Source: an uncultured Bacteroidaceae bacterium (GTDB lineage Bacteria; Bacteroidota; Bacteroidia; Bacteroidales; P3). Taken from it: a stretch of DNA of 52,439 nucleotides. The notes under the pieces are model-generated. The model saw only the letters and a list, made by a program, of their open reading frames with translations, was not told where the DNA came from and did not search any database. Below are positions 36,601 to 47,021 of the stretch, in pieces. The stretch lies in NCBI GenBank assembly GCA_964451895.1, contig CAYVJX010000001.1:7802-60240 (forward strand), written 5' to 3'. Both the position numbers and the translations under genes were made by a program. The number at the start of each line of letters is the position of its first letter. The first letter of the stretch is position 1.

Positions 36601-39600
36601 ACACCCAGCGGACCGCCCTTCAAGCTTACCTTATGGGAATGGCTACCCGAACAGCCATGAATATTGGTAGCGGTAAACGTGTAATCTACTGGACGCTTGA
36701 TAGGCTTGGTGGTTGCCGATAAAGCATTGCTGGCACTCGATAGCTCGTCAGCAGGAGTCCATTGGTAAACCAAGGCCTGACTTTCGCCGGGTTCAACGCC
36801 CGTGCTTTTAACCTCACCCAGCAAGGTATGCTGCGTATTGTATTGAACGATAACGGTAGTGTCCGAACCCGAATGAACCACCGGATTCTTGTGCGCTCTC
36901 AATAAGAATGTATCGGTAGGTTCGGGGTTGGATACCGGACATTCATAACCCGTGTAGATAAACGCTTGTATAAACGCACTGTCTTCCGCCTTGAACACGA
37001 ATTCCTTGCTCTTGCCGTTTTGTTTGCTTACGCCATTTACCCGCCAATCGATGGAATACTTCGAGGAAACCAGCGGATTCTGATGCGAAAGAACAAACTT
37101 AACCTGCGAGCCTTCGCACACCATGGTATCGGGCTGAACCGAAATGCTTCCGATAGCGTGCTGTATCGGATTGATGTACAAACGGGCAACCCCCGTAAGG
37201 TATTCAGGCGTATTGGAATATATGGTATCCCGTTTGGCGGTTTTGTCTTTAACCCCGCTTACACGGCAACGGAACTTGTAGCCGTTCATGCTCATGTTGA
37301 GCGGCGTGATGTTGGCGGGCATATTGCTCGAATCACGACCGATATGCAGACGGGAATAATTGGAGGTTGTGATAATCGTATAAGCGTTCACCAAACTCGG
37401 GTTGATATCCTCCCAGTTGCCCGTTCCGGGGTCAACCTGCCAATCGAACGACATGGACGCACCCGAAGCGGTTATCTCAAAATCGGCTACCGTGCTGTCG
37501 CAAACCGTAATCGGCTTGGGCTGGTTCAAGATGCGTACATCGGTATAGACTTCCACCAATACCGTATCATCCACCACACAACGCCACGGTTCGGTAAGCG
37601 TTACCTTGTAGCGGGTGGTGGCACCCGGCTTAACCGACACATCGCTTCCCGAACAGGAACTACCGCAAGGAGACCATTTATATTCGGCTTCAGGACTACC
37701 GCCCACGGCCTGCAAAGGAGCGGTCTCACCCAGATTGATACCGAAATGATTGGTAGGAACACCACCGTAGAGAATATCCAGATCGGGTTTATCCTTTACA
37801 ACAAAGTGCAGCACGTTGGAAACCTTGGGACGGCAATCCACACAATGGATACTCGATACCAGCAACATACGAACGCTGTCGCCATCCTGTACCGAATCCA
37901 ACGCCAGATAATCCCAACCGCCCTGCAATACGGTGTCTTCGTTGTATAGCCAGATGAACTGAGGCCTGTCGCCACCGTTCACATAACTGGAGCTGATACG
38001 GATCGGATAGTTGCGGCAAACAAGAACACTATCCAAGTCTTGATTGATATTGCTGGCAATCCTAACGTTAACCGTTTTCTTTTCATCTACCGCCGTGCGG
38101 ATAGAACGTGTTACAAAAGGTCTTGCCGTAACACATTCCAACGAAGAATAAACCGCCACGGAAACATTGAAGCCGTCATCGATACCCGCCAGCTTCACAA
38201 TCGAATCGCGGTTCGGGTCTCCAATCGGATTACCGTTGATGCGCCATTCGAACAAGGCACTGTCACCAAATCCGTAGCCGGTTACCCTAAAGACAGCCGT
38301 ATCGCCGAAACACATCCGTTCATAAGGCATATTCGGCACTACCGAATCAATAACGGCATAAACAGGATCCTGATTCCTGGCCGCCACCACTGCCATGGCC
38401 ATCGGCAAGTCTTCGGCATCGGCGCAACCCGGATCGATGGTAACCGTATAAGTACCCGCCATCCTTGCCGTAAAGCCGGCACGGAACGGGCTTTGTTCCC
38501 TGGCCACCCAACCGTCGGGACCCCTCCATATATAGGAGGCACCCGCTACCGTATCGGTGGTCAGGAAAAGCGTATCGCCGATACAAACCATCGAATCGGC
38601 GTATATCCTATACGTTGTAGTATCACAAGGAATCCCCTTGCGGGCAAAACCATCGGAACGACCGCCGGCATAAAGCGGATAGAAGATACCCGGTACACGC
38701 ATGGTGATATGGCCGTCGCCCAAACCACCCATATACGGCCAAGCTTTAGGCGCCATCATTCCCATCGAATGATGACCGTCGCCGATACCCCCTAGGAACG
38801 GAACGGCGAAGAATATCTTCATGGTGGATGTAACATGGCCATCGCCGATACCGCCCAGGAAGTTGGGGGCATAAATCATCTTCATGGAAGACGAGGTGTG
38901 ACCATCGCCGATACCCCCCAAATAATTGGTGGCGTAAATCATCGGTGTGCCTTCCGAAGTATGACCGTCGCCGATACCACCCAAGTAATTGGTGGCGTAA
39001 ATCATCGGTGTGCCTTCCGAGGTATGACCGTCGCCGATACCGCCCAAGTAAGTAGGCTTGTAAACCATTGGCGTGCCTTCCGAGGTATGACCATCACCGA
39101 TACCGCCCAAATAGGTAGGCTTGTAAATCATCGGCATGCTTTCCGAAGTATGACCATCACCGATACCGCCCAAATAAGAAGGCTTAAAGATTATGGGCTG
39201 CTGAACGCTCGAATGCCCGTCGCCGATACCGCCTAAATAGGCCGGTTTGTGTATAATAGGCAACTGTACGCTTGAATGGCCGTCACCGATCCCCCCCAAA
39301 TACACCGGCTTGTGAACTACCGGATTCTGAACAAAAGAACCGCCATCCCCGATACCCCCCATAGCCGGACGTGCCGGCTTTGGCGACTTATGGATGACCG
39401 ACGCCCCAGAAGTTCCAATACCACCAAAGAAAGGTCCTTCGTCTTCATCCCCCAAGGGAAAGTCTCCGGGAAGATCCGCCGGATACGAAATTGGAATAAA
39501 GGGTTCCGGCAAAAGCATATCCCCATCAGAGGCCTGCGGATACAGCATAGGCTCCGCCAACGAGAACGCCTGATAACCCCGCCTTTCGGATACCGAAACA

Positions 39601-39779
39601 GCCTGGTTCAAGTTGGGCAAAACAGCCGGAGCGGATACCGAAAGAGCGGCCTCCTCTCTTAAAGCCTCTTGCTTTAGAGACGAAAGCCGCGCCACCGTGG
39701 CACTGCCCGCGGCAACTCCGGTCAGACACAAACCGAGAATCGCCCACTTACGTATGTTCTGTCGGTTAAGAGCTTTCAA
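1..39779 (-). CDS. Giant secreted SprB-like / Ig-PKD-repeat cell-surface protein: 13,259 codons in the window, 3' end beyond the left edge, absent from the supplied ORF track
   Basis: The frame is the reverse complement with codons on plus coordinates 3n..3n+2. It was open and in the same register everywhere I hand-translated: 39,779-39,600; 39,023-38,961; 35,250-35,040; 33,440-33,360; 25,080-25,020; 19,427-19,200; 16,370-16,320; 9,345-9,300; 7,568-7,440; 5,640-5,590; 4,740-4,680; 257-3. The track lists about 40 minus-strand ORFs in 1-39,779 and none is in this register. A frame with any in-window stop would have been listed, as pieces or whole, so there is no stop before the window edge. An in-frame TAG at 39,783-39,785 bounds it upstream. 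The first start codon is TTG at 39,779-39,777, giving MKALNRQNIRKWAILGLCLTGVAAGSATVARLSSLKQEALREEAALSVSAPAVLPNLNQA. Examples read from sequence: AQAIGGTAPYTYTWSP (about 5.6 kb), QVIGGSGEYTYRWKGNGISYDSL (33.4 kb), ACAATDGKIAINATRGNQPYTYYFNDTAKSTNILDNVGAGMYTLQVSDNNGCW (35.1 kb, SprB-repeat-like). Confidence 0.93.
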   Translation of the reverse strand, partial: MKALNRQNIRKWAILGLCLTGVAAGSATVARLSSLKQEALREEAALSVSAPAVLPNLNQAVSVSERRGYQAFSLAEPMLYPQASDGDMLLPEPFIPISYPADLPGDFPLGDEDEGPFFGGIGTSGASVIHKSPKPARPAMGGIGDGGSFVQNPVVHKPVYLGGIGDGHSSVQLPIIHKPAYLGGIGDGHSSVQQPIIFKPSYLGGIGDGHTSESMPMIYKPTYLGGIGDGHTSEGTPMVYKPTYLGGIGDGHTSEGTPMIYATNYLGGIGDGHTSEGTPMIYATNYLGGIGDGHTSSSMKMIYAPNFLGGIGDGHVTSTMKIFFAVPFLGGIGDGHHSMGMMAPKAWPYMGGLGDGHITMRVPGIFYPLYAGGRSDGFARKGIPCDTTTYRIYADSMVCIGDTLFLTTDTVAGASYIWRGPDGWVAREQSPFRAGFTARMAGTYTVTIDPGCADAEDLPMAMAVVAARNQDPVYAVIDSVVPNMPYERMCFGDTAVFRVTGYGFGDSALFEWRINGNPIGDPNRDSIVKLAGIDDGFNVSVAVYSSLECVTARPFVTRSIRTAVDEKKTVNVRIASNINQDLDSVLVCRNYPIRISSSYVNGGDRPQFIWLYNEDTVLQGGWDYLALDSVQDGDSVRMLLVSSIHCVDCRPKVSNVLHFVVKDKPDLDILYGGVPTNHFGINLGETAPLQAVGGSPEAEYKWSPCGSSCSGSDVSVKPGATTRYKVTLTEPWRCVVDDTVLVEVYTDVRILNQPKPITVCDSTVADFEITASGASMSFDWQVDPGTGNWEDINPSLVNAYTIITTSNYSRLHIGRDSSNMPANITPLNMSMNGYKFRCRVSGVKDKTAKRDTIYSNTPEYLTGVARLYINPIQHAIGSISVQPDTMVCEGSQVKFVLSHQNPLVSSKYSIDWRVNGVSKQNGKSKEFVFKAEDSAFIQAFIYTGYECPVSNPEPTDTFLLRAHKNPVVHSGSDTTVIVQYNTQHTLLGEVKSTGVEPGESQALVYQWTPADELSSASNALSATTKPIKRPVDYTFTATNIHGCSGSHSHKVSLKGGPLGVLPQNGKLTVCENDTVRLPFEPYGGSGNYTFSWKSVPLDTTPVNTNFVSADTNVLSTVSPVGKTEYIIKVFDGVDSVFGKITVTVNARKLSHPVIVGDTVLCSNETNRFKLNVTGDAYSGNLSQYRWYLNDTLQDGFNGNASYTKAPKDGDRISCEVTLSYACPLQNPVRTPAVTVKLNPAPEIASSTSDTTICPGTAVRLFVVGNHIDSLSWSPQTSIVTGRNATNKSQLVEAKPVIPVKYKVTVFSDKKCTASKEISVKVWPSTAATAQQSDIYACLDGQARFTTKVSGQPAPGETSLTYDWQKLDGGVWTSLSSTDTKYANTGTAQLLVKNIQREEDGDQYRLHVSGYCEPDSTSNPITLHVIDSVYFDIALVDTPRCENDPAKIRFITNLSGLQKKIDVVISGSYGKRVYVTRDSVFVIKEVYPNDIVQAYLTPQGIVAQCVNPNPMRSQSINLGVKESPSFTSLASNPKACAATDGKIAINATRGNQPYTYYFNDTAKSTNILDNVGAGMYTLQVSDNNGCWSKKSEISLRDPNGPIEPKVANAGPYCVGDVLPQYLILDPKTKKAEVKWFSDYTCRTLVHTGDSMPFDPIVGRQTFYLYQQLGACKSATVKVEVFIGTAPVINYIDEVYPSSCELTDGIISIYAQGDTTLEYSIFDPQSFGPDPDFIDIPNGTYPVAVRTVTGCYVYDTVEFYAYNTPEAPRMLSSDTTYCAESARKPLEVDAARGGAINWYKDLTLKQLVSRANPYDISGLASGNYIFSAVEVVDECNSKPSTVKVNILPQIVTDLKDAYLGCPGGMITIKARHNDSVQYRWFYPETAATPSSTGDTLRVDVPSSLQRGRLEATLTVNGFICQSSQTFTLNYTTDPVYMNATVCVGDTILISIPGGKRFLWPNGDTTKTYKVVAGNAGSVVQIPVEVGFEDGCNMQYIYTVESKQGKPTYVGIEKDFNRYCSQEKHQLKAVLSDNSVPVSLQWYKDGMDLNDATAQILRIDSLDAGIYTYVVKATAKEFCTTPQETYDTVQVKVFETPVVYAGPDVIDLPYGEKAKVGMGAQVIGGSGEYTYRWKGNGISYDSLRYPVYTNRLYTGTTVTLYATDTVSGCVGKDDVDITIAGGPFRIKVTAPEVVCQGDTARLNVLAEGGSGKYAYHWKELPSGAFVDSTATTKPVLNSQTTFAVMVVNLTEGGHTAADTLRDTVTVKVDNLPVAGHIYTPDTTMCQDTSYLLLLKDYFGDAIVWEKSCEGVIWSDMGASSDSVLRTGECATNHYRAWVSNGVCPAHLTEEYRVHIHQPITNIISGPVPGGTLCPETDSVQFGGNDLPSGYTYQWQYGMDEVHFKSCPAPDDTAFKYTWINAIDSSRYIRRVVYYDGCPFISSTIKVSVYDDSNIGEIEGENYVCIDSVGYMSVPNTSMASYRWEVATDTTKDSADWTEVLGGTTFTCSTKQMERGDTLFYRAIGQKNSCEPDTTGIFHVIATDPLPVAIFISADTTEVCLNNFVTFTVDSVHFEGKKPLYYWYVNGNELSLPVKKGKDTLAYASKDGKTLYISTLLPGDSVQCALASSIGCVTERLAMSNAIKPLVYVPLVKMVEPASDLTFCRRDIIKLRADSAQYYRWAYFGTDDTAVMPMKGNSFIYFDTVTKVSPTVVTTYYVYGTDRHGCTGIDSVTLTPEPLFTALTPDTTICAGSKLSLKAVPASTRGVTYSWREVAVRDTNTARTLPDNTARNTITPAVIPLDSLTYYIYTINTPAPRYCSFTDTIRVFVEQNETPAVSIDYEGIRYNDTVHIIECDKREHFFSYESEWAGDEPKYKWIFNGEDVSHDSLFSDHYPYMVDHSSLYVEMESSRRCVTERTVKSNKFFVKYTKMPEAVVSINSNKGLKVCPNEEVVIFQAHAPTYDTGIFEWYVKYADSSRFAHVHTGDSLVSRFATGDQVYCIYVAKDTCIKYSPKQSNTLRFDNYPLYKPQVEIVGLNSGVDGNGDTVCEGATTVFTARLADQGSDYRLVWLVDGMEVGTPNSLTLSYSAFIAGHRDSAYRQSRVTARLETKHICAVPSNLNADDTLVYIKPRKALGVIIEQDVLQACNSLREEQVAFTHVYGPLSVSGNTIIANCSYQYWNTGAVSQQTIEDNGGVSAYAGNTTSHQMFGLTSRKDVTHYSHIDYAIYFDYGTIQIYENGDYKGSFGGYNTAQKYTVEIADSVVRYLRDGVVFHTSQTRDTIGLYRGGFSLHADNCRRPNMRAYIEYRNSSIVFGSTVYEPPVNKPDYNWMVNGVPFEFGNGEDTLYDHKYRFEPYDVVTLVVHSNDVCMERENAESNPITVHPTDPGNFLQLADTAYVCRGDSVRLTASGAKTYEWTLPVDMDTATVHDSSIVVWPAQTTTYRVTGANDEGCSDFKRIVVVVFELPDPNLGPDREVCYTDSLYFSVRNGAVPDSVTDRFYRTEWTFITPTDTVALTSPYDNAISFDAEESGVLVAKMVNKYSGCYTLDTLNLTVHPLPHIKMPDTLQVCISHDLAIFDSAYDQDYKKVNTYTWTPTTRISNGNGYTNGSYKIFNSADTGFFTYYVDVKTPKNCHAYDTVYVRNIKQELALNAELIRQTICEGETPRFILTGQWWDTLATAVLYRNGSQVATYTVGHTGESQRDTVSYTGTVANKDRFQFKLTSLNPCLVVKQIMSNFDTLGVIYNTTLASTPDSLCIGHDLTLQAQPRQDTNVHYTWTMFNGYEQTVIRYIGATPDTVHETVYINHGAFGFDTNTVVVPMPSLPTYFMVEADGGHGCVTRDTAYVGIIRADTLWAHVEQTLDSCYNPEMAYPTWDFTSPALIPMAGGQIIKDGSQGAGWNYITSPTVLHGNFMYRYVISGKEGYAMVGINYEGRSHNSCYGWWYNWCGYDADYTFYLVGGSGENNLRIYERGNHVWTGGSYKEGDVLFIVRQSGYINYYQNEVLVRRVKERSPSLNFNPEISMYSPGTSVDPVRYVELQNIELSSSAGTIASKINHKWYVNGKVVSTDSILKVHEAGFTGMNDTLVYEVSGQTKCDGLQTVRDTLAVQSPKGYTPVFLLLTTDSTQCQGRDFTVRAHLINRSGEVPDSAIRYNWYRGDLRIASATRADSIVITNAGINEYVWAQAYVDTIAKHCAFNNIKNPVRSSYLTLPVEPAKVLGVNVDVFPGQTVCLFSDVLFNATQVVSGLPDAGENPTVEWYLNGRFVSSDKTYRTDSLQDGDSVYAIITASAEVQCLDTNRKQTRVVHMDVLPAPVLAAHKDTIVTYNSEAKLWAEVIKNWEPNLKYEWYPSFDISEPYSANDSATVVKSRIDHIYTVQARNSIGCYSNEASVHVEVLTCPQFILRGSGTKACAGDTAFIYLQVQGFRPYTNIYFWQISHDNGATWRTLDPLTDGDFDIRVGTNSVTLVLAKTLAAYDKANSLFRCGAVATDTLLTCDTVYSRSAFIDVVDYTIPVAKVYGDTAICPRSPVIFTASGAVNPGDYYQWYVNGQMAAGNGSTLSLDSVKGNTQISVSTIIRNDQNACVDNAKATDTLHISVYPQPQLVMYPDTAIHIGDTAPVGVLVSGGTTPYTYSWNGLPNTTLFATNTDSTATKNQLFTTIYTVTVTDSNHCSAKGSMTVSIEDTCKLYVSIYGPKTVCFDSSVTFKGLVTGGLQNADIHYMWRCVPVVDTTVVTFTGKEFTVRALKPGTYNLTFAAVDSSEYVKELCPDEPHSATATFQFTVEPPKTFEVRIDTLAALCAGTESTLTATSYVNGSAATIAVSYAWQQYDRLGNIVKAQNSTSAQFVVKNWTEYDWVSVAATMGGDECETGMVVYDTLRPVINPQPGPLQARRIYVGGLEPCTFDTAVIGLNVPMAQEGQVQYTIDGGKTWHSDSLFTPVEDGDYYPGVKFIATGCEYISDTVIIVSLPEPSKMPDVQVKGDSSICMGVLADSLVAYDGHRGSIMVWYADSALTQVLAQSAVNAGRVAYGLPDSIKNTIGVYTFYAAQYAGDCKSDPKPFTVTVREADTANGMQLHYVKRFKCVDDGVAVPVKVSVQFDTINVEGIYQWTVLTGQAISGTGKEVSVDVVDSARICVVFTYVSSCDATTRTLYSDTISIRVAGIENTLSPGSLICIGDSTVAHSLDESGLSDTSFKYTWQTKTYDASTGKWTWNAATGNSKQENYTVYHSYLQPVEGKPTGYKQLSVRRILSVDGCSDTSAEIIFYYSPAPTATATISVPEVCVGYMVGATVSGTYLGTAPYANWYVNDMLVKTHDTLAVNLGVLAQGSKVRAVVYPVYDTMCPIVDSLVVEDTVKLKEAIAADIKITVADTLFCTPGNTFTASYNIGYSNDPQYKWFYNGVRVDSADGKSSYTRMNVKPGDSVYVMIHATVDCPAADSVRSASVLAGHRAPTVSGSVEAVPDTSLMKLDSIKFVASGADSYLWQDNNATGSVHHVYAKSGQSVYCVQLHTDGYCDTVLCVSSVIPTAGLTVPPVCEKQDVNAFVTGSNLGVSPYVNWYVNDTLVAAADTLVKNFGKRKDSTLITAVVYPDYSALVLPAGTATVDSIVLNVYASVTEAIKGKVSISVEDSLFCSLSNTFKATYNAEYSDTPQYRWYHNGVLMASANGMASYTSNNVKNGDSVCVVIFARNDCPASDSVRSDYYYARKGQIVPASIDVAATDTLCLGDTLRVKVSGADSYAWNDNSTDSARIFTAIQTPTTYSVTAHTDGYCDTTLSVTVVSRVRPANTKLVQNSLTICGDDTATLWITKAPGTGVLWNTGHTSDTIRVVVPNGKDSTIKVVFTDVYGCEFGPDSVTVQVRDSRPVNFVKDNLGLPDTACWRSQFSAVARVEPNDKADMYFTWYRSGAYWKSGYNLDSLALKGTDFPSASPYEITVIVQDNGICLRMRQDTIVDTIVVEQPKQAGINIQSNSHIDNDTLRICVGEATRLFSAVSNAGPVFEDGSHNWYIEWYRNGTFVQRGDTVTFAHLPIGSQIYAILYVDTTECNYAINSPVKSRVLTVVSVPQPDVQVELSLKLDTICSNSEYQVQAYVTNGGTDPQYRWYVNGFLATMGDERGNTVPINSPILDIIDIKQQAAQHGTNYDIVCWVKSSLPCAADSVRNKGVSTLVVFPADTLDVIISPQVDTACAYDNGNVVVTMHADVIGMAEGYDIEEPDLQWYVAATENDAPTPIAGATDKDLHYTTKNLTGNEVFSVRAFSKYLCTWNSSLVSEKARILLWPISSEAGVNDTVRNYADFVFSTDTAIGGTPHWITRGDGHFVYTDTSHPTYVLGVADKKSEGIWLVQEVTNKFGCYAADSMFLFISHCEDYKLEKDWADRIICGSETISLENRMVAKSGALSAVDSASYWFTVITDTVIDTLAVTKDLAFAWSGLFDTTRTYVLHATVNDLDCRYVDTMRVALHTVPVINFPDTLHACANHALDIQDSAYNSAAKADYSYTWNPSTYLSGQTANLSYVKFNSVDSGWFTYVVDAATPAGCHSYDTVHVYNVKHELTAQLTLLDRWICEGDTLRMAISGDWWLENATAQLYRNNVLVQTDTVGRAGRKQADTLVYGGEIKHGDIFLVVINSNDECLTTKTVTSNYEYVSVVYPTKIDAVPDSLCVDYDLTLNAMPKQDTGIHYKWTAFNDSASIYVHHKTIGKDTSVVVLPMPDASTYFEVEATGYGCTSRDTVYVKFMRSDSLWVTAEQIIDTCNSPTPQTPQWRSSGEMIYINGAQIIHNAGNYWNYLTSTTDMEGDFIYRYVISGKEAPAMVGINYKGRTHTNCSYWWWNWCGYDADYCFYISQEGGQPQLMIYERGGRVWSGSLWHEGDILYIIRQNGYINFYQNEVLVRRVKEREPNRAFNPEVSLHNVGTAVDPINYVALPQIKVDNKSGYIAGKKSHKWYINGELASTDSILRTLSTGLTDNDTLVYEVSGTTNCGEFQMASDTIIIQKPEGYSPVFLTLSHDGKKCEGSDYMVHTHIINRTEAIPDSAIRYNWYRQTELVAAGTQADSFLFTKVGRDEYVWAQAYVDSSYSGCAFNSWHNPVRSPFLYLPIEPSKKMGVNIDVYPGDSVCRFAEVLFNATQVISGMLDAGEKPTVEWFLNGKFVSAEKTYRTDSVEEGDSIYAIITASPEVLCLDTNRMQTKTLGMHVLTTPVITAHKDTVVEYNKEANIWAEVIENWESGITYEWYPSFDIRSPYKKTDSATVVRAKIDHYYTVQARNRIGCASNEASVHVEVLSCPQFILRGAGTETCLGDTAYVYLQVQGYRPYSNNYFWEMSTDHGTTWTVVDTSGDDYSIRTGLDNVTLLIHKATMAHDVSNALFRCAAIATDPRLEYCDTAYSSNVYVKVIHYVQPVAQMSGDSAACVDVPAEFTATGAVNEGDYYLWYRNDVLAPSNGANFILDSIDGRDESILVTVKIRNDENICVKESVDSMRVNVYPGSKLVMLPDTVIQMGDTAVVGVTVIGNSAPYSYSWNGLPNTTLETPYLSQSLTKDQYYTTRYTVTVTDSNGCRIRGNMMVRIADTCLVATSIYGPNSICMDKTGKFEAFVTGGLESSNLHMMWSMTPQMDTSVIAPNGKEISFRAMQPGTYTLTLTVSDTSEVTKKYCSEESQTMSVSTTITVDPKKDVRVKINGPSQICEGSTHALRAILTIDGVQTGIYRTFAWYRVDRFGNSSLFSFHRHDSPNDDNICGETIRNWGKGEKIVVAATLYGGDCEAGTVVYDTLAPYVMTTPGPLNVRDMYISGLMPCTFDTAAIGLTVPVEQRDSILYSIDGGNTWSSNALFQPVADGYYYPAVKFSTNGCEYHSPNTVLIKLPPAKPMPAIKVSGDGEYCLYNPIDTLVAYDGYNGAVVGWYADADRNVVLVEGAQGESSVAYIIPDSVHKTLGEYIYYAGQHLGRCQSELTQVPVTVRERDTVIGFKLGFVKRYNCNADSTPVWVDVYAEHEKNNVEGVYNWYSVYPVAFKGSGSRVQVATVDSNTVYATFTYTSACTGKVETVYSDTLKIDISQLPNTLIPGVSICPDSSVLVHAIDSLDFDTTFSFRWEAHYFTMHLGSGSWSWGLAPGVNDEENYTLHHSSLYHVYGTPEQRKELTVRRVVYAEGCYSVSDPVTFYYHPLPIPKPVLDLPRTCRGYDLTASVSGQGIDSVTTYVNWYVNDVLVKKNGLISENLGALLDGDAVKAVVYPLYDTLCPVFDSVILTGNAKVDTAIEADLWIKASDTLFCGTQGTFTAMFNSGYTDNPRYKWYYNGNHIAAADGSQTYSRSWHEGDSVYVAILANNMCTVTESAQSPVLYIHRGTTVAGSLNINPDTSICLGDTLRVAAQGGTTYTWSDGATGANRDFIATDIDRKYTLTIHTDHYCDSVIDVNVVSRKRPANTHLVQSKMTICGDDTAHIVANVDPGVHVLWSTGDTGAILRLPMMSHKHEVKVQATFVDAYGCPFGPDEILLDIHDNRPVDFAENTLHLPDSICWRETFSAVANVTPADKDSIYYAWYINNEFWLGHAGYNRNVLNDLKGADFTSSAPYIIKVVLQDNGWCRLNRQDTLVDTIVVIQPRDAGINIQSNSTIDGDTIRICVGETTRLFAAVSEAGPVFEDGSHNWYIEWYKDGSLVRTADTVTFKGDLPVGSHIKALLYVDKTEYCYAKNSPVWSRELTVASVPVPKVEVDLDLKVDTVCSNEDYRIVANVTNGGTNPVYHWYVNGSLVTTVDNGGNTIPLDMPYLDLVNIKQQEDGSNYDIICWVKSSLPCANDSVRNDDTATLVVFPADTLQVTISPEIDTACSYLNGDIEVILKATVTGRAVAFDVEEPDLQWYRNGQPLFGYTKKNFRYISKDITNEDEFSVMAFSRYRCTWNSALISDTAHVVLRPVIPDAGKDDSIYNYADYRFYSDTAIGGEPHWITRGDGLFVNADTIHPLYKLGEEDKKSDGIWLVLEVTNAFGCSALDSMFLFVSHCEDYGWFTDVADVTICHDKTIEVVNHLEAKPGAVYPVEKANYALVALSAGTYATDTLAKSNDLTFSWTGVVDTTRTLVLTGSSNGYGCPYTDTVNVTVLPLNEISVELTQHGNDTCQNFAANTGNWDITPGHYDLHWDYNASTGVLSHTHCNNASDLVSTDFGAANTMMRYVATGNELAGMVGFNYEGRRSSELDYGVYFNYGTINLYYLGYATDYMPIGTYQAGDVFTIIRTDDKVYFYVDQNNEHKLLRVLDEPEYGIGRRVNYAIGSYRVGATFNNIWYLNQPATKIGNKITFDPLPGKLSYAWSLNDSIVSTDSLWNAEKFHVHDGDRVKLCVEGITVCDTVSVCDSLTISSIDVYSPMYLTLVRDSMNECDGDAFTLTATAHNLPAGIDASRLRYNWYQNGKVLATGTTSNVYMLDSAHIGDYAYAEAYILDDICVVNNQAKPAVSHRVTFDLKENKELGVALTTNVAVEPAVCPNTEVIFTANVTNGGSYTVNWFVNGKFHAVGDNLSMRADTTYSVYARVDAKNDAVCLDIDTIYSDTLTVNVLPAPVVEAWSDTVVDKGSAVALNGKVVANADTVMTYHWTGCGGIERADTLHTTAVANNSCVYYLTAFNSIGCASEPDTVFVDVYDCPSLASVDVPAVICENDSAVVRVNVYGFKPETNSYKWQISTNNGTTWSDLSAGSRYAMSQDRLGGQLVVRNVSTDISAGTAIFRCVVKATDSALAFCPAVITPDIKLNVDITARNLPTIQIVGQSDFCTNSATVGTVYSVNITPGYEVAWKQNGSGVLEYDGNDHRRGYTVADGDKVIGVLYSGNTCIDRLQISDTLTVHFHPQPSLTAWTDTTIAYGDFAALHAKLTNGTGPVVYSWTPADKVLNADTAHTFTTALFESTVFNVEATDSVSCGAKGRVVVIVSDTCVRKVELDGPTSVCADEVAQFTGLVTGGGVVGNYDLSWRIEPALSTNDGSLFVPNAGATLNIADAVPGDYTIIFTVTDTSAAVKTYCDPDGVVMSDTAVLNIYAPDTLAVSLSSLADSVCEGETITLVAHATINSTPDADAALTYEWFRIRNGFNSYIGSASDTLNIYNAADRDVYYVIVSENGDCHVNNHARSNNDTVTVHPVPEPLKPYQVYAHSHISCVEDVAYIRIDADTSLHLLYSIDSGATWHAKYLFDTLEKGTYHVMVKGEAGCEAQGVQTVYIDVQPDLNFAAPDVAFDSIVSCIDNLTPIVAYNKQSGYLGWFTDSALTHRLAISEQDADSMVYTPVIDTPGRYLFYIKKGLGDCEGPATKVIYIAGTCNIRLEPAPAGLCPDDSTKLYAVIDEATRNISKHWSYQYSANGKFDTTTVVVSRFDKMDTIFVKDTGYYRIVDTTYWNTVMYSNVSRVQMGSYAKFGAGCIDIAYPTAGAVAMCAGDGEVKISVNCMTSDYYVVWPDSSRNNSYTKNFDTATDVKIVVKSVIGDCPVDTTVRVVVLPKQYIKLSYNDTTICLGNEAKVSIMLPKIMDSGTVYPPYSNYEWRYKTGLDYTDGEYNEQDVNYNGSLMLSGLKVKSGDYTDYTYVAQAFASLASCPSVTDTLRIRVRRNNFILAPDSLTFCSGESDSISLPAADSIGINGIFMPYVSKLAVGPITRDSIMAITLYNDACRATDTLKIRYILPDSLVASLSPVADTCAEITADTMKWNGSTLHTAANGWQSVYAADTLKANAELNYVVSGQERAMVIGLEYIDNNRGLWNKPYSLYLSDNGSEDSRKFYFYESGWEVNYTAAGDYRMGDLFTVRRSGGHVEYYHNGTLLRRVAEPEALKSNAMRISASNYYQGSDIAPLSVASIPAPQISTSLYHRYDDLHYAWFVNGMSVSNDSVLDNGYILVEGDTVVWQVTSYGICDTAMSADTLVIDSQNAYASIGVNLTSGSKSVCRGEAVELTADITRLPDGVSLGDVRYNWYINGTAVALDNTSATYTHNNVADGDYAHVEVYADGLCLLNGKSNPARSNTLYFNVDTAEQVELALDIQPAAAVCEGEEMQFTAVMRGLKYAPTIEWFVNGMNKGTGNSLTLADAKTGDSIYAVATFDAEENCQGGKTLRSNTLKLSVNPVPVVKAITDTTVLRGATVPLTGIVTAGWTPGMQYVWSPATLTNDTLTTAVVTNITTYTFTAVNAYGCQAEAQVQVDVESPYKEECAYLSAQSAINAPAVCEGDSTSFTVTVSGSKPDAYSYNWQISADNGNTWNDIAAPLYVNRGTSLHIPAVTSSMNGSLYRAVIVPDAAHSHCDTLYSLPFKLAVKTSSRQHNISIDGDGELCANAETFAYILNASVQAGDHFFWYLNNILVGQDIATLNLNKEQLGKGGILKALWQMASGDCASQIAYADSIEIAVGDELSVVAGNDTVIDKNTTAALFAQAIGGTAPYTYTWSPALSTTVTPEGRTLTQPLASTTVFTVTATGAHGCEATAQVKVTVKDTCLQDVVISGPRTGNQTSCQGEQVELQALVSGGMPGNYTIEWTVAPALAADEYVPVQNNSDLWIKPSMPGVYTIQVTVTDTSALAAAHCEASQLVQTTQITLTVTGKDTLAVSLDRPDSVCQNVEFSLNAHATLNGQAAANVNYHWYRVRNNVVYDLGMGGAMLVPTDALDADRYFVVASSTEECLANSEAVSDTVESVLYPVPTKLKPSDVVYTPGRMCSDDTASLEIKGSYKVAQIKSRWPQTLYYSIDNGANWQTSTLFKPLPDSAMFQVVVKNQYGCIDANNRLDIKRAPQTIDAWIEAGPDDTIVAGQTFRVHGDTVAAPGTPHWTTSGTGTFVNADTLHPVYIPSDADVVAGKVKLYLSVNSNNYCPLKDSLTLYILECGVYSIVRNGGDTVVACGDETLTFIGKLASDNAALTPPKADYEWRFIDIVFGSGYTVEHSDMNADSSRWEPADPTPGMYELYVKTVTNCVLTDTFYLDIQSIPTGEGTIELIYPGGNNAISMCINDTARIVVTDDSGLNTYIWPDGTESDGVSNNTYAVTATKDTSVIVKITSKGGCVGYDTIEIAVDKPFALSLSRNDTTVCVGNDVRLPKISAPGYGSIAPLTTYVWKNSHGDTVDAGNYAAQNRPVMTITQDTVYRAYAYTEAHCQSAVAEYKVATDKYRLVLADTLYACYGDKVKFAMPAATKNYTLNGASFNAASSAAFDVETSSLYNDTVLVVTATDTLGCGNSDTVMVHVLPLPDMNIVNPGACANQPLVLRLPNLDSTDECKWEVNTVSGTYNFTGDTITFRPGASDSILYIDLKVTNRLGCIYTKKDTVNVYMWPDLNIHDTAVCEGLEGITLIPNYSSVNATYNVTWLRKGLDSATKLPHSTYHELAVTDTVSHRYYFELKNKTNGCTDTGSVMVNITRLPKLKHIVDDTLCVNEPTYIFTYDNVGQFEAEDDAATQWSCMEYLSNGSQKAGYIDPSFVSTLKTQRIKVDYRPSDEIKALGGVAHFVVYTTGKNECAGIKVADSFNLVFTDPLEVLVSDDQYVCISTGKDAKIAVDLRPTFENIAGYEFKIDTTKVKVDQVWGSEHKQGTLIYHNPGGDTNVVCHDTLRVWNEEGCELVRPFSVEFVGGAPYVKPDTLTICPGDTVTVKVSNPNSQLDPIWRNIETGRLVTRGNEVRLSPANTTMYRITQLESADPACTGITTEDTLTIVVRDRILVETAGDTNVCEITDVKVGVTEVSQNVHRYQWIDSATGDVISTDSAFMMKAVSSNHTFFLTVWNDSTGCTDHDTLRLTYGGNLYKLNFYDTTVYVGTTIDVVVHGPWPTEKDPACPYEWFNETDTLTICNLDSIWHLQATKTTDYTLYLRGGETECYNRLRVNVIRLNLHDTAVCDYCPTEIGIDSVEIDYVEWYYLDTLRFTSGHSEPVETQFCFDDTVRNKHQVITDSLYYHAYVIPYPYKVKESDTVPAGPFCDTVYSEPYIELAYDGKRSAKHDTKTEDIDVYKEFLHWNKVEVLCKEPAPGKKFVCDTLFMVMCFPDFEGLTILRFGEGMLVNCREVDSICVVVGTEDHLNNSWNEDTVTLTLDCSVSEPPTGGPTIVCDTTYTLINIGTKKNPNYVYDQVTVSNCREVAENCEVEYEKNRAVDNSEEFVMAKITCSDLPQKKKTICDTVYTLINIGTKKNPNYVYDQATVSNCREVADNCEVKYEKNRAVDNSEEVITAEVICPEPEDPKPTVKTKTVCDTVYTKINIGTKKNPNYVREEGPGTEINCREVPEDCEVTYETVSSADGSSDTVRAITGCMTEIPPTEPEDPKPTVKTKTVCDT
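4640..7700 (-). repeat. Core cassette IV (~3.0 kb) of the giant ORF; boundaries approximate
   Basis: It starts with ...RKFYFYESGWEVNYTAAGDYRMGDLFTVRRSGGHVEYYHNGTL (hand-translated 7,568-7,440). It ends with KSRWPQTLYYSIDNGANWQT (4,740-4,680). It contains YSYNWQISADNGNTWNDIAAPLY (about 6.15 kb) and AQAIGGTAPYTYTWSP (about 5.6 kb) at positions equivalent to those in cassettes I-III. Confidence 0.6.
9250..12330 (-). repeat. Core cassette III (~3.0 kb) of the giant ORF; boundaries approximate
   Basis: It starts with RYVATGNELAGMVGFNYEGRR...INLYYLG...GDVFTIIRTDDKVYFYVDQN (about 12.3-12.0 kb). It ends with DTSLHLLYSIDSGATWHAKY (9,345-9,300). The intervening module order matches cassettes I, II and IV. 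Confidence 0.6.
16280..19430 (-). repeat. Core cassette II (~3.1 kb) of the giant ORF; boundaries approximate
   Basis: Hand-translated start: TDMEGDFIYRYVISGKEAPAMVGINYKGRTHTNCSYWWWNWCGYDADYCFYISQEGGQPQLMIYERGGRVWSGSLW (19,427-19,200). It ends with QRDSILYSIDGGNTWSSNAL (16,370-16,320). In a 60-nt stretch I counted, 17941-18000 versus 26584-26643, 50 of 60 positions are identical. Confidence 0.7.
24950..28110 (-). repeat. Core cassette I (~3.1 kb, about 1,000 aa) of the giant ORF; boundaries approximate
   Basis: It begins on the N-terminal (high-coordinate) side with the module FMYRYVISGKEGYAMVGINYEGRSHNSCYGWWYNWCGYDADY...IYERG...YINYYQNEVLVRRV. It ends with the SprB-like module QVQYTIDGGKTWHSD (about 25.0 kb). 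Module order is the same as in cassettes II-IV. Anchor nucleotide match: 27996 aligns with 19350 and 12261 (gtagttga.acccaccatg). Confidence 0.7.
38646..39422 (-). repeat. In-frame tandem array of 13 units of 63 nt (21 aa) with a GG[IL]GDGH core
   Basis: The His codon (plus-strand atg or gtg) recurs at exact 63-nt spacing at 38709, 38772, 38835, 38898, 38961, 39024, 39087, 39150, 39213 and 39276. A GGIGDGG unit sits at 39339, and degenerate units flank the array (GGIGTSG near 39402, GGRSDGF near 38646). One unit translated by hand reads TSEGTPMIYATNYLGGIGDGH. The units at 38898 and 38961 differ at 5 of 63 nt. Confidence 0.92.
39690..39779 (-). other. Predicted N-terminal signal peptide of the giant ORF
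   Basis: The translated N-terminus is MKALNRQNIRKWAILGLCLTGVAAGSATVA. It has a basic n-region (K, R, R, K), a hydrophobic core (WAILGLCLTGVAAG) and a small-residue A-T-V-A stretch. The cleavage site is not determined. Confidence 0.55.
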
Positions 39780-39789: not shown

Positions 39790-41427
39790 TTACAAATCAA
39801 ATCTAGTGCCCGCCGGCGGATACCGGCAACCCCGGAAACCCGACCACGGATTCCGGCGGCCTTCGCCTGCATTCACCTGCACGCTTTCAGCATAACGGCG
39901 ATTGGAAATCTGAAATCCCCTGAATCCTCCTCCTTCTTCAGACGGCCAATACACCTGTCCGCTCACTATATCATCCACCAAGGCATCGCCATTGTCGTCC
40001 AATACCCCGTCGCCATCCACGGGAACGAACGAACGCCCCTCCTCGGTACTTACATTGATGCAACGTTCCCAAAGATTATCGCTCATATTCATAATGCCGT
40101 AGTAGCTGGCTCCGGCTTCGTTGCGCATGGTGCTGTCTTTGGCAAACGCCCCCACGCGCATTACCCAAGGCGCCTTGCCCGTTTCTAAATAACAAGCTTC
40201 GGAATTCGAACTGACCTCGGTAGGCAAGCCCGCATCGGTAATGGCATAATTGTTGGCGGCAATGCCGTATTGTTCACCCCATGCCATACCCCGGCGCAAA
40301 AACTGATGCCCGCGGCAGGCTTTTTCAAATTCCATCTCGGTCATGGGGCGCAGACAGGCCCAATCGAGATAGGCCAGGCCATCGTTCCACGAAAGGAAGT
40401 TGCAGGCTATATTGCCGCCGTTGTTTTCCATGGTCCACATGGTATCGACATCAATTCCCGTTATATTATGGCCATAAATGGCGCCCTTGGCGGGATAATC
40501 GTCGGTTTCGGCCTCCGCCGGAATACGGATGCGCACATAGTTCCGGTACGAAGTATTGATGGCATACGGAGAAGCGGGCAACGCCAGACTGCCCTTGCCC
40601 GCAAACGGACTCACATTGGCACGTTCATCCTGCTGTTCGGGCGTAAGCGTATTCAAAAAATCGGCGTAAGCGTGCTGGCTTATCTCGTATTTCATCATAT
40701 ACACGGCCTTGAATCCTTTGGGGAAAGTATCGGACACCGGCGTTCCGAGATAAGACCAACCTTTTTCATCGGTAACCTTGCCCATCAAAGCAGTGCGCCC
40801 ATCGCTTACATCGGTTTTTATAATTAAGTTTTTGCCCTCAGCATAGAGCGATTTTTCGGAAACCCCGTCCCCTATAATATAGGTATTGGCCGGCACATAC
40901 ACCATCTCGATGGCAAAGACTGCCACCTGTATTTCGTCCTGGTCTAGATAATCGTGGTCGCGATAGTTGAACTGCAGACGGATATCCTGAATCACATTGC
41001 TTCCATTCCCCACCTCCTTGCGGTAGATAAAAACGCCGGAAGTTACCAGACTGTCGATGGTAGGCGAAGTGGCGAATTCAGACCAATACTCCACATTGCC
41101 CGAACCTATGCTGTGGGGCAAGGCCATATATGAGCCCGAACCGCTGTTTACCGGATTGCCCTGCGGCTTGGTAAGATATACATGACGCCAAGTGCGGAAA
41201 TCGGAATTATAGCATTTTACAAAGACCCAGGCCGCATCCCAATTACGGTGCAGACGGTCTTTCCAGGAATGATCCCAGGAAAGGCTGAAACGCACAAAAG
41301 CCGTGCCCGTCAGGGTATCACGACCTTCCACCGATACGGTGCCTATTTGGATATTGTTGGCATAAACACCCTTTAGGCCACCCCAAGCCAACAACAGCAA
41401 CAAACCTATTTTAACAATGCTTTTCAA
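39790..41427 (-). CDS. Secreted FGE-sulfatase (SUMF1) fold protein, GldJ/GldK-like, paralog 2 (545 aa); TTG start
   Basis: Listed ORF. N-terminus (M)KSIVKIGLLLLLAWGGLKGVYA|NN looks like a type I signal peptide. FGE-fold hallmarks: FPKGFKAVYMMKYEISQHAYADFLNTL, NDGLAYLDWACLRPMTEMEFEKACRG, GASYYGIMNMSDNLWERCI and a C-terminal GFRGCRY. The start codon at 41427-41425 is TTG. The first in-frame ATG is about 100 codons in and would remove the signal peptide and a region conserved with the paralog. Confidence 0.85.
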   Translation of the reverse strand: MKSIVKIGLLLLLAWGGLKGVYANNIQIGTVSVEGRDTLTGTAFVRFSLSWDHSWKDRLHRNWDAAWVFVKCYNSDFRTWRHVYLTKPQGNPVNSGSGSYMALPHSIGSGNVEYWSEFATSPTIDSLVTSGVFIYRKEVGNGSNVIQDIRLQFNYRDHDYLDQDEIQVAVFAIEMVYVPANTYIIGDGVSEKSLYAEGKNLIIKTDVSDGRTALMGKVTDEKGWSYLGTPVSDTFPKGFKAVYMMKYEISQHAYADFLNTLTPEQQDERANVSPFAGKGSLALPASPYAINTSYRNYVRIRIPAEAETDDYPAKGAIYGHNITGIDVDTMWTMENNGGNIACNFLSWNDGLAYLDWACLRPMTEMEFEKACRGHQFLRRGMAWGEQYGIAANNYAITDAGLPTEVSSNSEACYLETGKAPWVMRVGAFAKDSTMRNEAGASYYGIMNMSDNLWERCINVSTEEGRSFVPVDGDGVLDDNGDALVDDIVSGQVYWPSEEGGGFRGFQISNRRYAESVQVNAGEGRRNPWSGFRGCRYPPAGTRFDL

Positions 41428-41541
41428 AGCCTCTGTGTTAAATAAACCCTTGTTTTATAACACCTATCCTCAACAAAGCCAACAAAGCAGGACGTGTGCC
41501 GAAACACACATCCCACCCTATCTATTATTGTAGCACTTCTA

Positions 41542-43443
41542 TTATTTGGCCGCACCGGCGGTACGTACGCAACGGATACCACGCATACCTACCGTTCCCC
41601 GTTGATCCGGATAATATCTGTCTTCTAAGCTCAACGTATGGGTGGAACCTCGACGGTTGGAAACCAAACCGGCCCACTGCCATTCATGCGCTGGCACCGT
41701 TATATCAAACCTATAGTTGGCCACTAACATTCCACGAACAATATAATACCTATAGTTAGTGTAGTCGGTACCCGGAGTGTTGGATGCAGCAAAGGTTAAC
41801 CAATCTTTGTTCATGGCATCGCCATTTCCATCCAACTGACCGGAACCATGCGAACCCTTGAAATTTCTACCCGTGGTATCGTAAACCGAAATACAGATTT
41901 CACCCACATTGTCGCTCATATTCATCACACCCCAGAAACTGGCACCCGAAGAAGCCCGCGTGGTAGTGGAATCTGCAAAACAACCCACACGTACCGGACC
42001 GGAGCACGTAGCCCCCCACCAACAACTCCACCAATTATCACTAACATGTGCGCCAGAATTATATACTTCCTTAGGTCTTTCTGTTCCTGTCCATTGATCT
42101 ATATATCCCCAATTCCTTGCCGGCCAAAAACGCATGGTAACACTCCCCCAAGCAAACTCATCGTTAGCTGGTTTCTTGGGACCACGGCAGGCTTTTTCGT
42201 ATTCTAATTCAGTCATAGGACGCAATCCAGAAAATTCTGCATAAGCCAAAAAGTCTAATACGTTAATCCAGTTCATCGCCAAATCCTGACCATCGATATT
42301 ACGGGTCATGAATTTGTTCTTGGATGAATCGCAACGATAGTCGTAGCAAACTTTGTCGGTTTCATTATATATATTGTTGTTGTTTCCATCACAACCAAAA
42401 ACAACCACAGGTGAAGGCTGCTTAACCTTGATAACATTGCAGTAAAAATCCCAACCGTGTCCATCAAGATCCCGAGTCAACCAAGAGTTTTGCGCAAAAG
42501 TGGACAAAGTACCCTGAATTCTACCGTCCTGCTGACCCTGACTCAAAGTATTCAAAAATTCCACATAGGCTTCCTGGGTCATTTCATACTTCATAATATA
42601 AAATGCTTGATACCCTTTGGGAAACTCTGCAGGAATCGTACCAGCCGTAATACCCGCGCCGCCAACGGTCCACAAGGTGCTTTCTGCCGTGGAATTCGCC
42701 ACTGTAATGGGATCTTCAGATTCAATCACCATCGGACGCCCAAGCGTTGCCTCATCGGTGGTAAACGCAGCATAATGGCGGTTGTCTGCGACAGAACCCG
42801 CGCCGCCCAAATAATAGGCGCCGGTGGGAACATACACCATTTCTACGGCAAACACTTTTACCACCAAGTCGTCTTCATCTACAAAGCCTTGACGCACATA
42901 ATCCCATATCAGCGAAACTCCGGGCACCACGATATGACCAGCGCCATAATCCACCCGACGCAAAAAGAAACCCACCACACATTGTTCTTCTTCTTCTGCC
43001 GGTTCCACATGCCATTTGGGATAAGCCAAAGAAAAACCAGGTTCCAGCATCATCGCCATTGTGGTATTGCTAGCATCGCGGTTAGAAACATAATATTCTT
43101 CATAGCAGGAGGTATCCCCATAGCAGACCGCATCAGTCGGAACAAGACTACCCGGAACATTGGCTATGGTATCTTTTAGATACACATGGTTCCAAGATTC
43201 CCCATCCCAGCATTTTACAAAAATCCAAGCGGCATCGTGGTTCTGCGGCTTGGTGGTTCTCCAGCTATTGTCCCACGCGATATCAAAACTGATAATGGCA
43301 TGGTGCATATTGGTATCCTGCACCAATTTCGGCTTTCCAAGAATACGGATATTGTTGGCATTGGCCAAGCCCGAAAGCATACCCACCAAGGCACAAACAA
43401 AGAGGCCGCGGAGCATACGCCCCATAAGATTACTGCTTTTCAT
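41542..43443 (-). CDS. Secreted FGE-sulfatase (SUMF1) fold protein, GldJ/GldK-like, paralog 1 (633 aa from ATG 43443)
   Basis: Listed ORF 41542..43503, whose first codon is TTG. The ATG at 43443 gives MKSSNLMGRMLRGLFVCALVGMLSGLANA|NN, which is signal-peptide-like. The 20 codons upstream lie in an AT-rich stretch that looks non-coding. It matches the downstream gene block for block: NNIRILG / NNIQIGT, FDIAWDNSWR...HDAAWIFVKCW / FSLSWDHSWK...WDAAWVFVKCY, FAVEMVYVP / FAIEMVYVP, FPKGYQAFYIMKYEMTQEAYVEFLNTL, LRPMTELEYEKACRG, GASFWGVMNMSDNVGEICI, GIRCVR. Confidence 0.85.
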   Translation of the reverse strand: MKSSNLMGRMLRGLFVCALVGMLSGLANANNIRILGKPKLVQDTNMHHAIISFDIAWDNSWRTTKPQNHDAAWIFVKCWDGESWNHVYLKDTIANVPGSLVPTDAVCYGDTSCYEEYYVSNRDASNTTMAMMLEPGFSLAYPKWHVEPAEEEEQCVVGFFLRRVDYGAGHIVVPGVSLIWDYVRQGFVDEDDLVVKVFAVEMVYVPTGAYYLGGAGSVADNRHYAAFTTDEATLGRPMVIESEDPITVANSTAESTLWTVGGAGITAGTIPAEFPKGYQAFYIMKYEMTQEAYVEFLNTLSQGQQDGRIQGTLSTFAQNSWLTRDLDGHGWDFYCNVIKVKQPSPVVVFGCDGNNNNIYNETDKVCYDYRCDSSKNKFMTRNIDGQDLAMNWINVLDFLAYAEFSGLRPMTELEYEKACRGPKKPANDEFAWGSVTMRFWPARNWGYIDQWTGTERPKEVYNSGAHVSDNWWSCWWGATCSGPVRVGCFADSTTTRASSGASFWGVMNMSDNVGEICISVYDTTGRNFKGSHGSGQLDGNGDAMNKDWLTFAASNTPGTDYTNYRYYIVRGMLVANYRFDITVPAHEWQWAGLVSNRRGSTHTLSLEDRYYPDQRGTVGMRGIRCVRTAGAAK

Positions 43444-43705
43444 AATCCCTTTATTTATAATATTTAAAATTATCAACAATTTGTTGAAAACATTTTTTAC
43501 CAACCGCTAAGATACTCATTCCTCGGCAACCAACCAAAAAAGTTAATAAGTTTTTTAGGGGGAGAGTAAAACAGGGTATTGCTTACAAGAAAAATCCTCG
43601 GTATCTTTCTCCGCGTTTTTGTTACCGGGCTGGCGAAACTTTACTTTTTTATCCTAAAATTTCAACCTATCCCGATAGTTTCATGCCCCAAACCGCAAAA
43701 AAACG

Positions 43706-43736: not shown

Positions 43737-44237
43737 ATGAGGAGACTATCTCTACGGCTTCCGATCGGAGTTTTAGTTTTAACCATAGTTTCTATGGTAG
43801 TGGTTGCCTGCGGCGGCAAGAATGAGGCAAGCCAAGTAGCCAAAGCTTTTCTGCAAGCCTATTATGTGGACTTGGACTTTGACAAGGCGCAAACCTTGTG
43901 TTCAGATGTATCCCGACCTGTCGTGGCCGAACAGGGGCAAATGGTTGCCCTGAACCCCTATGCCACCGAAGAAATTCCCGCTTTGGCTTTTAGGCAATTG
44001 GAATGGAAGGCCGACAATCCGAATACGGCTGTTTTTACTTATACCGTGAACCGCAGTGAACGCACCCTGCCCTTGCGCAAGTTTAACGGAAAGTGGTTGG
44101 TAGATTTGCAAGGAGGCACGGTAGAAATGGGCGGTGCCGCCAACCGCATGGAATTGGGCAACGATTCTAAAGGCGGATTTGCCGTCTCGGAAGCCAGCGG
44201 CCCTATCGTTTATAAAAAACGAAAGAAAAACAATTAG
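43737..44237 (+). CDS. Small lipoprotein (166 aa), possibly DUF4878/NTF2-like
   Basis: Listed ORF with an ATG start. Signal peptide with a lipobox: MRRLSLRLPIGVLVLTIVSMVVVAC|GGK. The family call rests only on size and the AKAFLQAYY..D motif recalled from memory. Confidence 0.75.
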   Translation: MRRLSLRLPIGVLVLTIVSMVVVACGGKNEASQVAKAFLQAYYVDLDFDKAQTLCSDVSRPVVAEQGQMVALNPYATEEIPALAFRQLEWKADNPNTAVFTYTVNRSERTLPLRKFNGKWLVDLQGGTVEMGGAANRMELGNDSKGGFAVSEASGPIVYKKRKKNN

Positions 44238-44262
44238 TTATAAGAATTTAAAATAACTTATC

Positions 44263-47002: not shown

Positions 47003-47021
47003 ACATGAAAGCAGATTGCTC

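Follow-up and report, generated by a model that had tools for sequence, protein, structure and literature searches.

PorK, GldK and GldJ carry a non-catalytic formylglycine-generating enzyme (FGE) fold that is used as a docking hub (PMC12421860), and the cysteine-less FGE fold in the PorKN structures has been described in the same terms (PMC12421860, PMC12635249). Two other proteins of this fold, here termed ProtA and ProtB, are encoded directly ahead of a giant open reading frame (ORF) in a 52,439-nucleotide (nt) stretch of an uncultured Bacteroidaceae bacterium (GenBank assembly GCA_964451895.1, contig CAYVJX010000001.1, positions 7,802 to 60,240), hereafter the window. Judged from sequence comparison, both belong to a conserved unit in which a protein composed of a distinct N-terminal domain (N-domain) and an FGE fold is followed by a secreted protein, the cargo, with an N-terminal Gly-repeat handle. 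The window contains the largest version of this unit, with two paralogous partners. No description of such a pairing was found in the literature searched; it looks like a previously undescribed partner-and-handle module and not like a component of the gliding track. The family with its own N-domain and the cargo motif appear to be new, while non-catalytic FGE-fold envelope proteins as such were already known.

Like PorK, GldK and GldJ, ProtA and ProtB appear to be envelope proteins of the Bacteroidota with an FGE fold lacking both catalytic cysteines. The former are lipoproteins encoded in gldKLMN/porKLMN or by gldJ, are paired with PorN/GldN and have a reactive Cys in the R-G-C-F loop, whereas ProtA and ProtB have predicted type I signal peptides and the extra N-domain, are encoded beside their cargo and have no PorN/GldN-like partner gene in the window flank or in the loci examined. 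Catalytic FGEs (human SUMF1, T. curvata, S. coelicolor) give the best profile and structure matches and share with ProtA and ProtB a link to a short linear motif of a protein exported by Sec. ProtA and ProtB differ from them by the missing Cu-binding Cys pair and sulfatase substrate, by long insertions and the added N-domain, and by a linked motif that is Gly-rich instead of CxPxR. A related fold serves non-enzymatic binding in Lcl_C/DUF1566, Fib_succ_major and the variable proteins of diversity-generating retroelements (for example TvpA), and fusions to Lcl_C or Fib_succ_major occur in part of the present family. Unlike the variable proteins, ProtA and ProtB have no diversity-generating retroelement nearby, and their family has its own N-domain and cargo partner.

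The sprC-sprD-sprB-sprF genes of Flavobacterium johnsoniae resemble the locus in that two accessory genes stand directly ahead of a giant surface-protein gene on the same strand. In contrast to that arrangement, an orthologous giant (contig L093) shows no sorting domain in the part scanned and is followed by a separate protein with a type A sorting domain of the T9SS (type IX secretion system), and the accessory family mostly accompanies non-giant cargos. Two further systems are comparable by analogy only. Cohesin-dockerin pairs also have a repeated docking site on a scaffold, and in two-partner secretion an N-terminal element is likewise read by a partner encoded next door. No sequence or fold relationship exists to either, and neither ProtA nor ProtB is an outer-membrane barrel.

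ProtA and ProtB

On the minus strand the gene order is ProtA, ProtB and the giant ORF, with gaps of 114 nt between ProtA and ProtB and 10 nt between ProtB and the giant. ProtA (41542..43443, minus strand) starts with the ATG at 43443 and comprises 633 amino acids (aa), the same sequence as database cluster P0001; in the ORF listing its frame is extendable to a TTG at 43503, which gives 653 aa. Its parts are a signal peptide (aa 1-29), a beta-sandwich N-domain (aa 30-205) and an FGE-fold domain with insertions (aa 206-633). ProtB (39790..41427, minus strand), read from a TTG start at 41427 to the stop at 39790, has 545 aa: a signal peptide (aa 1-22), the N-domain (about aa 23-178) and the FGE fold through to the end. 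The two proteins are paralogous, with 31% identity across 548 columns (BLASTP, E 3e-62) in an alignment that covers the N-terminal motifs. By sequence distance they are two old orthologous lineages, because the distance between them equals the distance of each to the rest of the family.

Both N-termini are type I-like as judged by eye, with an A-x-A cleavage context ahead of a conserved 'NNI'. A conserved lipobox Cys was not found in either protein by eye; Cys17 of ProtA lies outside a lipobox and is not conserved, and the signal peptide of ProtB contains no Cys. Secretion of both proteins is a prediction from signal peptides read in this way. Neither protein has a T9SS sorting domain, a lipid anchor or a transmembrane segment.

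The Pfam family FGE-sulfatase (PF03781, cutoff 23.3 bits) matches ProtA at 39.2 bits and ProtB at 33.2 bits. The AlphaFold 2 (AF2) model of ProtA, built with 85 homologs, has a predicted local distance difference test score (pLDDT) of 87 and a predicted template modelling score (pTM) of 0.90; at the boundaries given above it shows a disordered signal peptide, an all-beta domain and an FGE-type domain with insertions. When the model was compared with the PDB by Foldseek, the top matches were bacterial and human FGEs, OvsA, EgtB and CalU17, with E ~4e-4 and a target-normalised template modelling score of 0.5-0.57. A family profile searched against PDB sequences matched only catalytic FGEs, EgtB and CalU17 (E ~1e-8) via the central 'LRPMTELEYEKACRG' region, and the single sequence of ProtA had no match in the PDB. 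PorK was missing from the profile matches at E<=1 and from the 50 best Foldseek matches of ProtA. No NCBIfam family matched ProtA or ProtB at E<=1 in a library assumed to hold the GldJ and GldK models.

The catalytic C-x4-C pair was not found, both proteins being Cys-free between the R-G-M and the S-x-R/G-I-R segments. A CxxxxC at residues 366-371 of ProtA falls in an insertion that is unconserved among orthologs. C419 is the sole nearly invariant Cys across 85 family members, and it aligns with a structural Cys of human FGE. A disulfide tether analogous to that of PorK Cys356 was considered and rejected: the context of C419 is 'EKACRG' instead of an R-G-C-F loop, and close to the motif the cargos lack a conserved Cys. 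No conserved metal-ligand constellation is evident in the family beyond the fold-defining residues. An earlier note on this DNA, made from the letters alone, had described tandem same-strand paralogs with type I signal peptides and an FGE fold devoid of the catalytic pair, and the coordinates, alignment, fold searches and signal peptides agree with it. The likeness to GldJ and GldK that it drew stands as regards the non-catalytic fold and falls as regards membership, given the missing NCBIfam match, lipobox and PorK match.

The N-domain (42829..43356, minus strand, in ProtA) is specific to the family, with W57, N68, D70, W73, K77 and W84 invariant in family alignments, and no Pfam or NCBIfam model matches it. 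A phmmer search with it against 1.84 billion representatives returned 1,044 matches at E<=1e-3, counted as clusters at 50% identity. In nearly all of the matches listed it begins within the first ~130 residues, and the proteins are mostly 470-750 aa long. Some family members continue C-terminally into the Pfam domains Lcl_C (DUF1566) or Fib_succ_major, and some longer ones have Pro/Thr linkers followed by other extracellular-looking regions, as seen by eye. In P0162 the entire module of N-domain and FGE fold is present twice in tandem. In P0157 (2,958 aa) a 33-residue stretch of the N-domain was matched 14 times, apparently via a different repeated domain, and this match may be spurious.

The repeat array and its linkage to the family

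The giant ORF (3..39779, minus strand) encodes more than 13,259 aa with Ig-like and PKD-like repeats and runs off the window start. Its frame stays open between 39782 and the start of the window, and the first start codon, a TTG at 39779, leads 13,259 codons without a stop. The translation shows an N-terminal hydrophobic segment at aa 12-30 (39690..39746, minus strand), either a signal peptide or a signal anchor, which is kept in orthologs and is modelled by AF2 as part of a helix at residues 2-49 (pLDDT 83-94). It is followed by an array of 12 copies of 'Y-L-G-G-I-G-D-G-H' at aa 139-379 (38643..39365, minus strand), counted by regular expression, with a spacing of exactly 21 aa and a 63-nt tandem period in the DNA. 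By the same count the remaining 12,800 aa of the giant contain zero copies of the motif.

Species-representative genomes were searched and yielded at least 575 relatives; the loci retained number 79. The A-B-giant order was found in 9/9 related loci with room downstream; in the close relatives an A-type gene, a B-type gene and then a giant ORF off the locus end follow one another in every case. Triads with a giant of 10-13 repeats are present in L001-L004, L081, L082/83, L089/90 and L091/92. The A-type genes are 47-59% identical to ProtA (L001-L005), and the B-type genes, always in second position, are 48-72% identical to ProtB. The gap between B and the giant is mostly 7-10 nt; it is 84 nt in L091/L092, and in L002 the giant frame opens 40 nt past the B stop. 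The giant has 10,624 aa as completely called in L081, at least 8,277 aa in L089/L090 and at least 10,572 aa in L091/L092. These giants share their start, which consists of the hydrophobic helix, a linker and 10-13 repeats of the form 'Y-L-G-G-(I/F/L)-(G/A)-D-G-(H/F/N)'.

Clustered at 50% identity, the wider family amounts to ~1,000 clusters. Relatives with 30-35% identity are usually encoded by one gene per locus. Two to four tandem paralogs next to a single cargo gene are a common arrangement. The downstream cargo is mostly a protein of 230-1,200 aa with a signal peptide often ending in '...AQ'. Its mature N-terminus opens with '[YF]-x-G-G-x-G-x-G' or 'G-G-x-x-D-G-[FYHW]' in 1-13 copies with a 21-24-residue period; further variants were seen by eye. 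The strict motif GG..DG[FYHWN] was present in 16/62 adjacent downstream ORFs vs 16/4,451 other ORFs. A looser motif was found in 43/77 ORFs downstream of family genes vs 29/2,250 other ORFs (1.3%; Fisher p ~1e-50). Family loci often end at a contig edge just past the FGE-like gene (L021, L029, L036, L055, L070, L073 and others). The measured linkage is probably an underestimate, because such edges fit repetitive cargo genes that break short-read assemblies.

A T9SS type A sorting domain, with TIGR04183 or PF18962 scoring above cutoff, closes many of the cargos and is missing from others. Cargos without this domain include those of metagenome-assembled genomes (MAGs) labelled Brocadiaceae, Omnitrophota and Verrucomicrobiota, and one of them has 3,184 aa. 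Some family members likewise occur in MAGs labelled Verrucomicrobiota, Planctomycetota or Omnitrophota. Beyond the N-terminal Gly motif the cargos have nothing in common, and in several small ones the whole protein is made up of repeats, one beta-sandwich and the sorting domain. The Gly repeat is not covered by any model of Pfam or NCBIfam.

The linkage was also examined from the cargo side. A reverse search with the first 460 aa of the giant retrieved mostly proteins of 280-460 aa made of Gly repeats, a beta-sandwich and Por_Secre_tail, and did not retrieve the giants themselves. For all five Gly-repeat proteins whose loci were looked up, the gene immediately upstream, at 0-41 nt, encodes a family member, with E values of 1e-52 to 1e-111 against the hidden Markov model (HMM) of the family. 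The conserved unit named at the outset is defined as an FGE-fold protein with a Gly-repeat-handle protein because the family-wide linkage and the reverse test agree. The earlier note had tied the paralogs to the giant gene and had proposed co-folding with the N-terminal GGIGDGH array. The tie is supported by the gene order, and the array proved a productive lead, as its motif is enriched downstream of family genes generally. The proposal that the tie is specific to a giant SprB-like adhesin did not hold, since most family members pair with the smaller proteins that share only the Gly motif. In the survey of co-occurrence that the note had suggested, a giant was found in all the close loci and mostly non-giant cargo elsewhere.

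In three of five small two-gene modules (L084, L086 and L087) a TPR-HisKA_3 histidine kinase and a LuxR-type response regulator are encoded directly upstream of the FGE-like gene. This pair suggests dedicated regulation in that clade.

The body of the giant and the surroundings of the triad

The giant gives an Ig_7 match of 87.8 bits in Pfam, and its PKD, Ig and SprB repeat matches are weak. The SprB repeat (PF13573, cutoff 28) remains below threshold, scoring 25.9 bits in the first 5,000 aa, and is not found in the next 5,000. No NCBIfam model matches the first 5,000 aa, which also ruled out the TANFOR polymorphic toxins (TIGR02542; PMC7073777) as a candidate for the giant N-terminus.

The C-terminus of the giant lies beyond the window, and its ending was read only from the ortholog P0282 on contig L093, to whose end the giant is 66% identical over the final 1,000 aa that the window shows. 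In both the window (3-700, minus strand) and L093 (13,000-14,521) the giant changes to Cys-containing repeats of ~55-60 aa with the pattern 'KTKTVCDTVYT..NPNYV..NCREV..C.V.YE', after which the L093 protein ends in '...VVTCN*'. Neither Pfam nor NCBIfam detected a sorting domain in the last 1,695 aa of the L093 giant, and NCBIfam detected none in the preceding 3,152 aa; together these stretches make up the C-terminal 4,800 aa scanned. L093 is one assembly with at least one frameshift, and its giant ending is suggestive only. As such it counts, together with the sub-threshold repeat, against the name SprB-like that the earlier note had given to the giant. A separate gene in L093 (14592-17624), 70 nt past the giant, encodes a 1,010-aa protein that has a signal sequence of its own as well as a type A sorting domain (TIGR04183, 27 bits vs a cutoff of 23); no other curated model matches it. 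Two dockerin-like 'G(L/N)(N/D)GNDAT' segments are visible in it by eye only. This protein could be another partner of the giant.

Long ORFs antisense to the giant are present on the plus strand between 408 and 37949, for example 2457-5774, 18822-22415 and 24996-29537, and reach 1,513 aa. These plus-strand ORFs of 600-1,500 aa over 0.4-38 kb are shadows of the giant minus-strand frame. In L082, from the related public assembly GCA_949025385.1, gene calling gave such antisense ORFs, 1,841 and 1,647 aa long, in place of the giant; the giant gene family is therefore being mis-annotated.

A terminator-like hairpin with a T-rich tail was found by a consensus scan in the gap between ProtA and ProtB (41481..41522, minus strand). 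It is a consensus match only, with neither conservation nor function supported, because the five terminator-like sites of the region are no more than in shuffles and the A-B spacing among orthologs varies from overlap up to 635 nt.

Upstream of ProtA, on the plus strand, are a 166-aa predicted lipoprotein (43737..44237) with no Pfam family match and a 216-aa secreted TPR-like protein (44263..44913) with a weak TPR_8 match. Both have homologs beside the triad in L001, L003, L004, L081 and L082, those of the lipoprotein being 38-58% identical. Order and orientation of these neighbours vary across the five genomes, with the TPR-like ORF of L001 standing between A and B. Judged from this recurrence, the two proteins may belong to the triad. 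DUF6057 and PD40 (beta-propeller) proteins are encoded just upstream of the A gene in L081, L082, L089 and L090 and not in the window.

The proteins of the window flank are an AbiEii toxin, Schlafen/AlbA_2, beta-lactamase-family and helix-turn-helix (HTH) proteins. Positions 44000-48000 form an island of low GC content (36-38% vs ~50%) which includes a 592-aa protein without a family match and an AbiEii toxin gene (47170-47940) beside a 192-aa ORF; AbiEii also occurs near the triad in L082, L089 and L090. The island is a candidate hotspot of mobile or defence genes. Further on, two adjoining ORFs (48700-49936, plus strand) encode Schlafen/AlbA_2 (194 aa) and HATPase_c_4 with winged HTH (207 aa). 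Such domains are usually found together in one protein, and the pair may be one gene split by a stop or a frameshift.

Proposed docking on the repeat handle and competing explanations

The evidence gives direct support to the FGE fold of ProtA and ProtB, the loss of the catalytic cysteines, the A-B-giant order and the reciprocal linkage of family and motif. From this genomic linkage it is proposed, at about even chances, that ProtA and ProtB recognise the N-terminal repeat handle of the giant by docking. In such a mechanism the Sec-exported, non-catalytic proteins would be cognate partners that recognise the 21-residue Tyr-x-Gly-Gly-x-Gly-Asp-Gly repeats and would contact the motif directly in the periplasm or at the cell surface. 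Binding would be stoichiometric, with the array as a multi-site scaffold that the FGE-fold proteins decorate or hold, by analogy with the docking hub of PorK and GldK. The giant would merely be the largest cargo with this handle.

Several points weigh against docking. About 40% of family genes have no motif neighbour detectable by regular expression, some of them standing at contig ends or next to variant motifs. The class of the motif follows the FGE-like phylogeny (32/51 nearest neighbours vs 13.9 expected), and shared ancestry may explain this. The AF2 model of the N-terminal 460 aa of the giant is poor (overall pLDDT 53, ~53-68 in the array) and too weak to separate a folded solenoid from a linear peptide ligand. 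ProtA and ProtB carry no sorting domain or anchor that would take them to an extracellular handle. Finally, PvdO has the FGE fold without the FGE cysteines and is still an enzyme.

The principal rival is enzymatic modification. ProtA and ProtB would be maturation enzymes acting on a residue of YxGGxGDG(H/W/F/Y), for example by oxidation, cross-linking or hydroxylation, as the unfolded N-terminus emerges from Sec, in the way FGE acts on the CxPxR of sulfatases. The same genomic linkage would result. In most cargos the motif follows directly on the signal peptide, as would suit an enzyme acting co-translocationally, a single enzyme could serve 1-13 repeats, and the nearest solved structures (FGE, OvsA, EgtB and CalU17) are all enzymes. 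On the other side are the missing Cu-binding Cys pair and the lack of any evident metal-ligand constellation. The sulfoxide synthases EgtB and OvsA were aligned through their FGE-like part only, while their iron is bound in a separate N-terminal DinB-like domain. Docking is favoured over an enzyme-substrate relation because the fusions to lectin-like or extracellular domains, the tandem sets of paralogs and the minimal cargos fit a binding module and its scaffold better. Enzymatic modification is thus considered unlikely, though it is the strongest competitor.

It is more doubtful still that the genes are co-located without a functional link, ProtA and ProtB being free-standing lectin-like binders and the Gly motif a spacer or a calcium-binding beta-roll. 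Such an explanation would account for the family genes with no detectable motif neighbour, and surface-protein genes often cluster. The adjacency is nevertheless immediate, on the same strand, often within 0-40 nt and found in both directions of search, and it is kept across orders and phyla in spite of a complete change in the rest of the cargo.

The track model implied by the earlier note, in which ProtA and ProtB are GldJ/GldK-like track or anchor proteins dedicated to a giant SprB-like adhesin in analogy to sprC-sprD-sprB, is very improbable. It draws on the non-catalytic fold common to GldJ, GldK and PorK, on the conserved gene order ahead of the giant, and on the track of F. johnsoniae, which is built of FGE-fold proteins and carries SprB through SprF (PMC12635249). 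The comparisons with PorK and GldK, the lack of a lipoprotein signal and of a PorN/GldN-like partner gene, and the properties of the giant itself all speak against it. In addition, the linkage is independent of gigantism, as most family members pair with small non-adhesin cargos, some of them in MAGs labelled outside the Bacteroidota.

That ProtA and ProtB are ordinary FGEs maturing sulfatases, as the Pfam match and names given in databases ('formylglycine-generating enzyme family protein', for example) would have it and as the earlier note had foreseen as an alternative, is effectively refuted because the catalytic residues are missing; in addition, no sulfatase gene or domain was found in the window flank or the related neighbourhoods examined, and the N-domain and the cargo linkage are unrelated to sulfatases.

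Docking may be extended, tentatively, to a modular system of envelope display in which the 21-23-residue YxGGxGDG repeats are docking sites (1-13 per cargo) and the N-domain with the FGE fold is the plug. Proteins without a sorting domain, either ProtA and ProtB or a module fused to lectin-like or extracellular-looking domains, would ride the handle protein to the surface or be held there by it, and the folded complex might even cross the T9SS. For the giant this would mean a stalk of great length with up to twelve lectin-like heads at its far N-terminal tip. If docking or display holds, the pairing could be something more distinct than a variant of the non-catalytic FGE-fold envelope proteins.

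The FGE fold was recognised only recently as a non-enzymatic docking element in PorK, GldK and GldJ of the core T9SS and gliding machinery. The present family points to a second and much larger branch of the repurposed fold. If the pairing is physical, it would give a rule for predicting the partners of hundreds of T9SS cargos and of otherwise unannotated giants, and possibly a route by which proteins without a sorting domain are displayed. The small two-gene modules, each with one protein of ~480 aa and a cargo of ~330 aa, are easily tested. A physical pairing would also provide an experimental entry into the giant genes of gut Bacteroidales, for which wrong annotation is routine.

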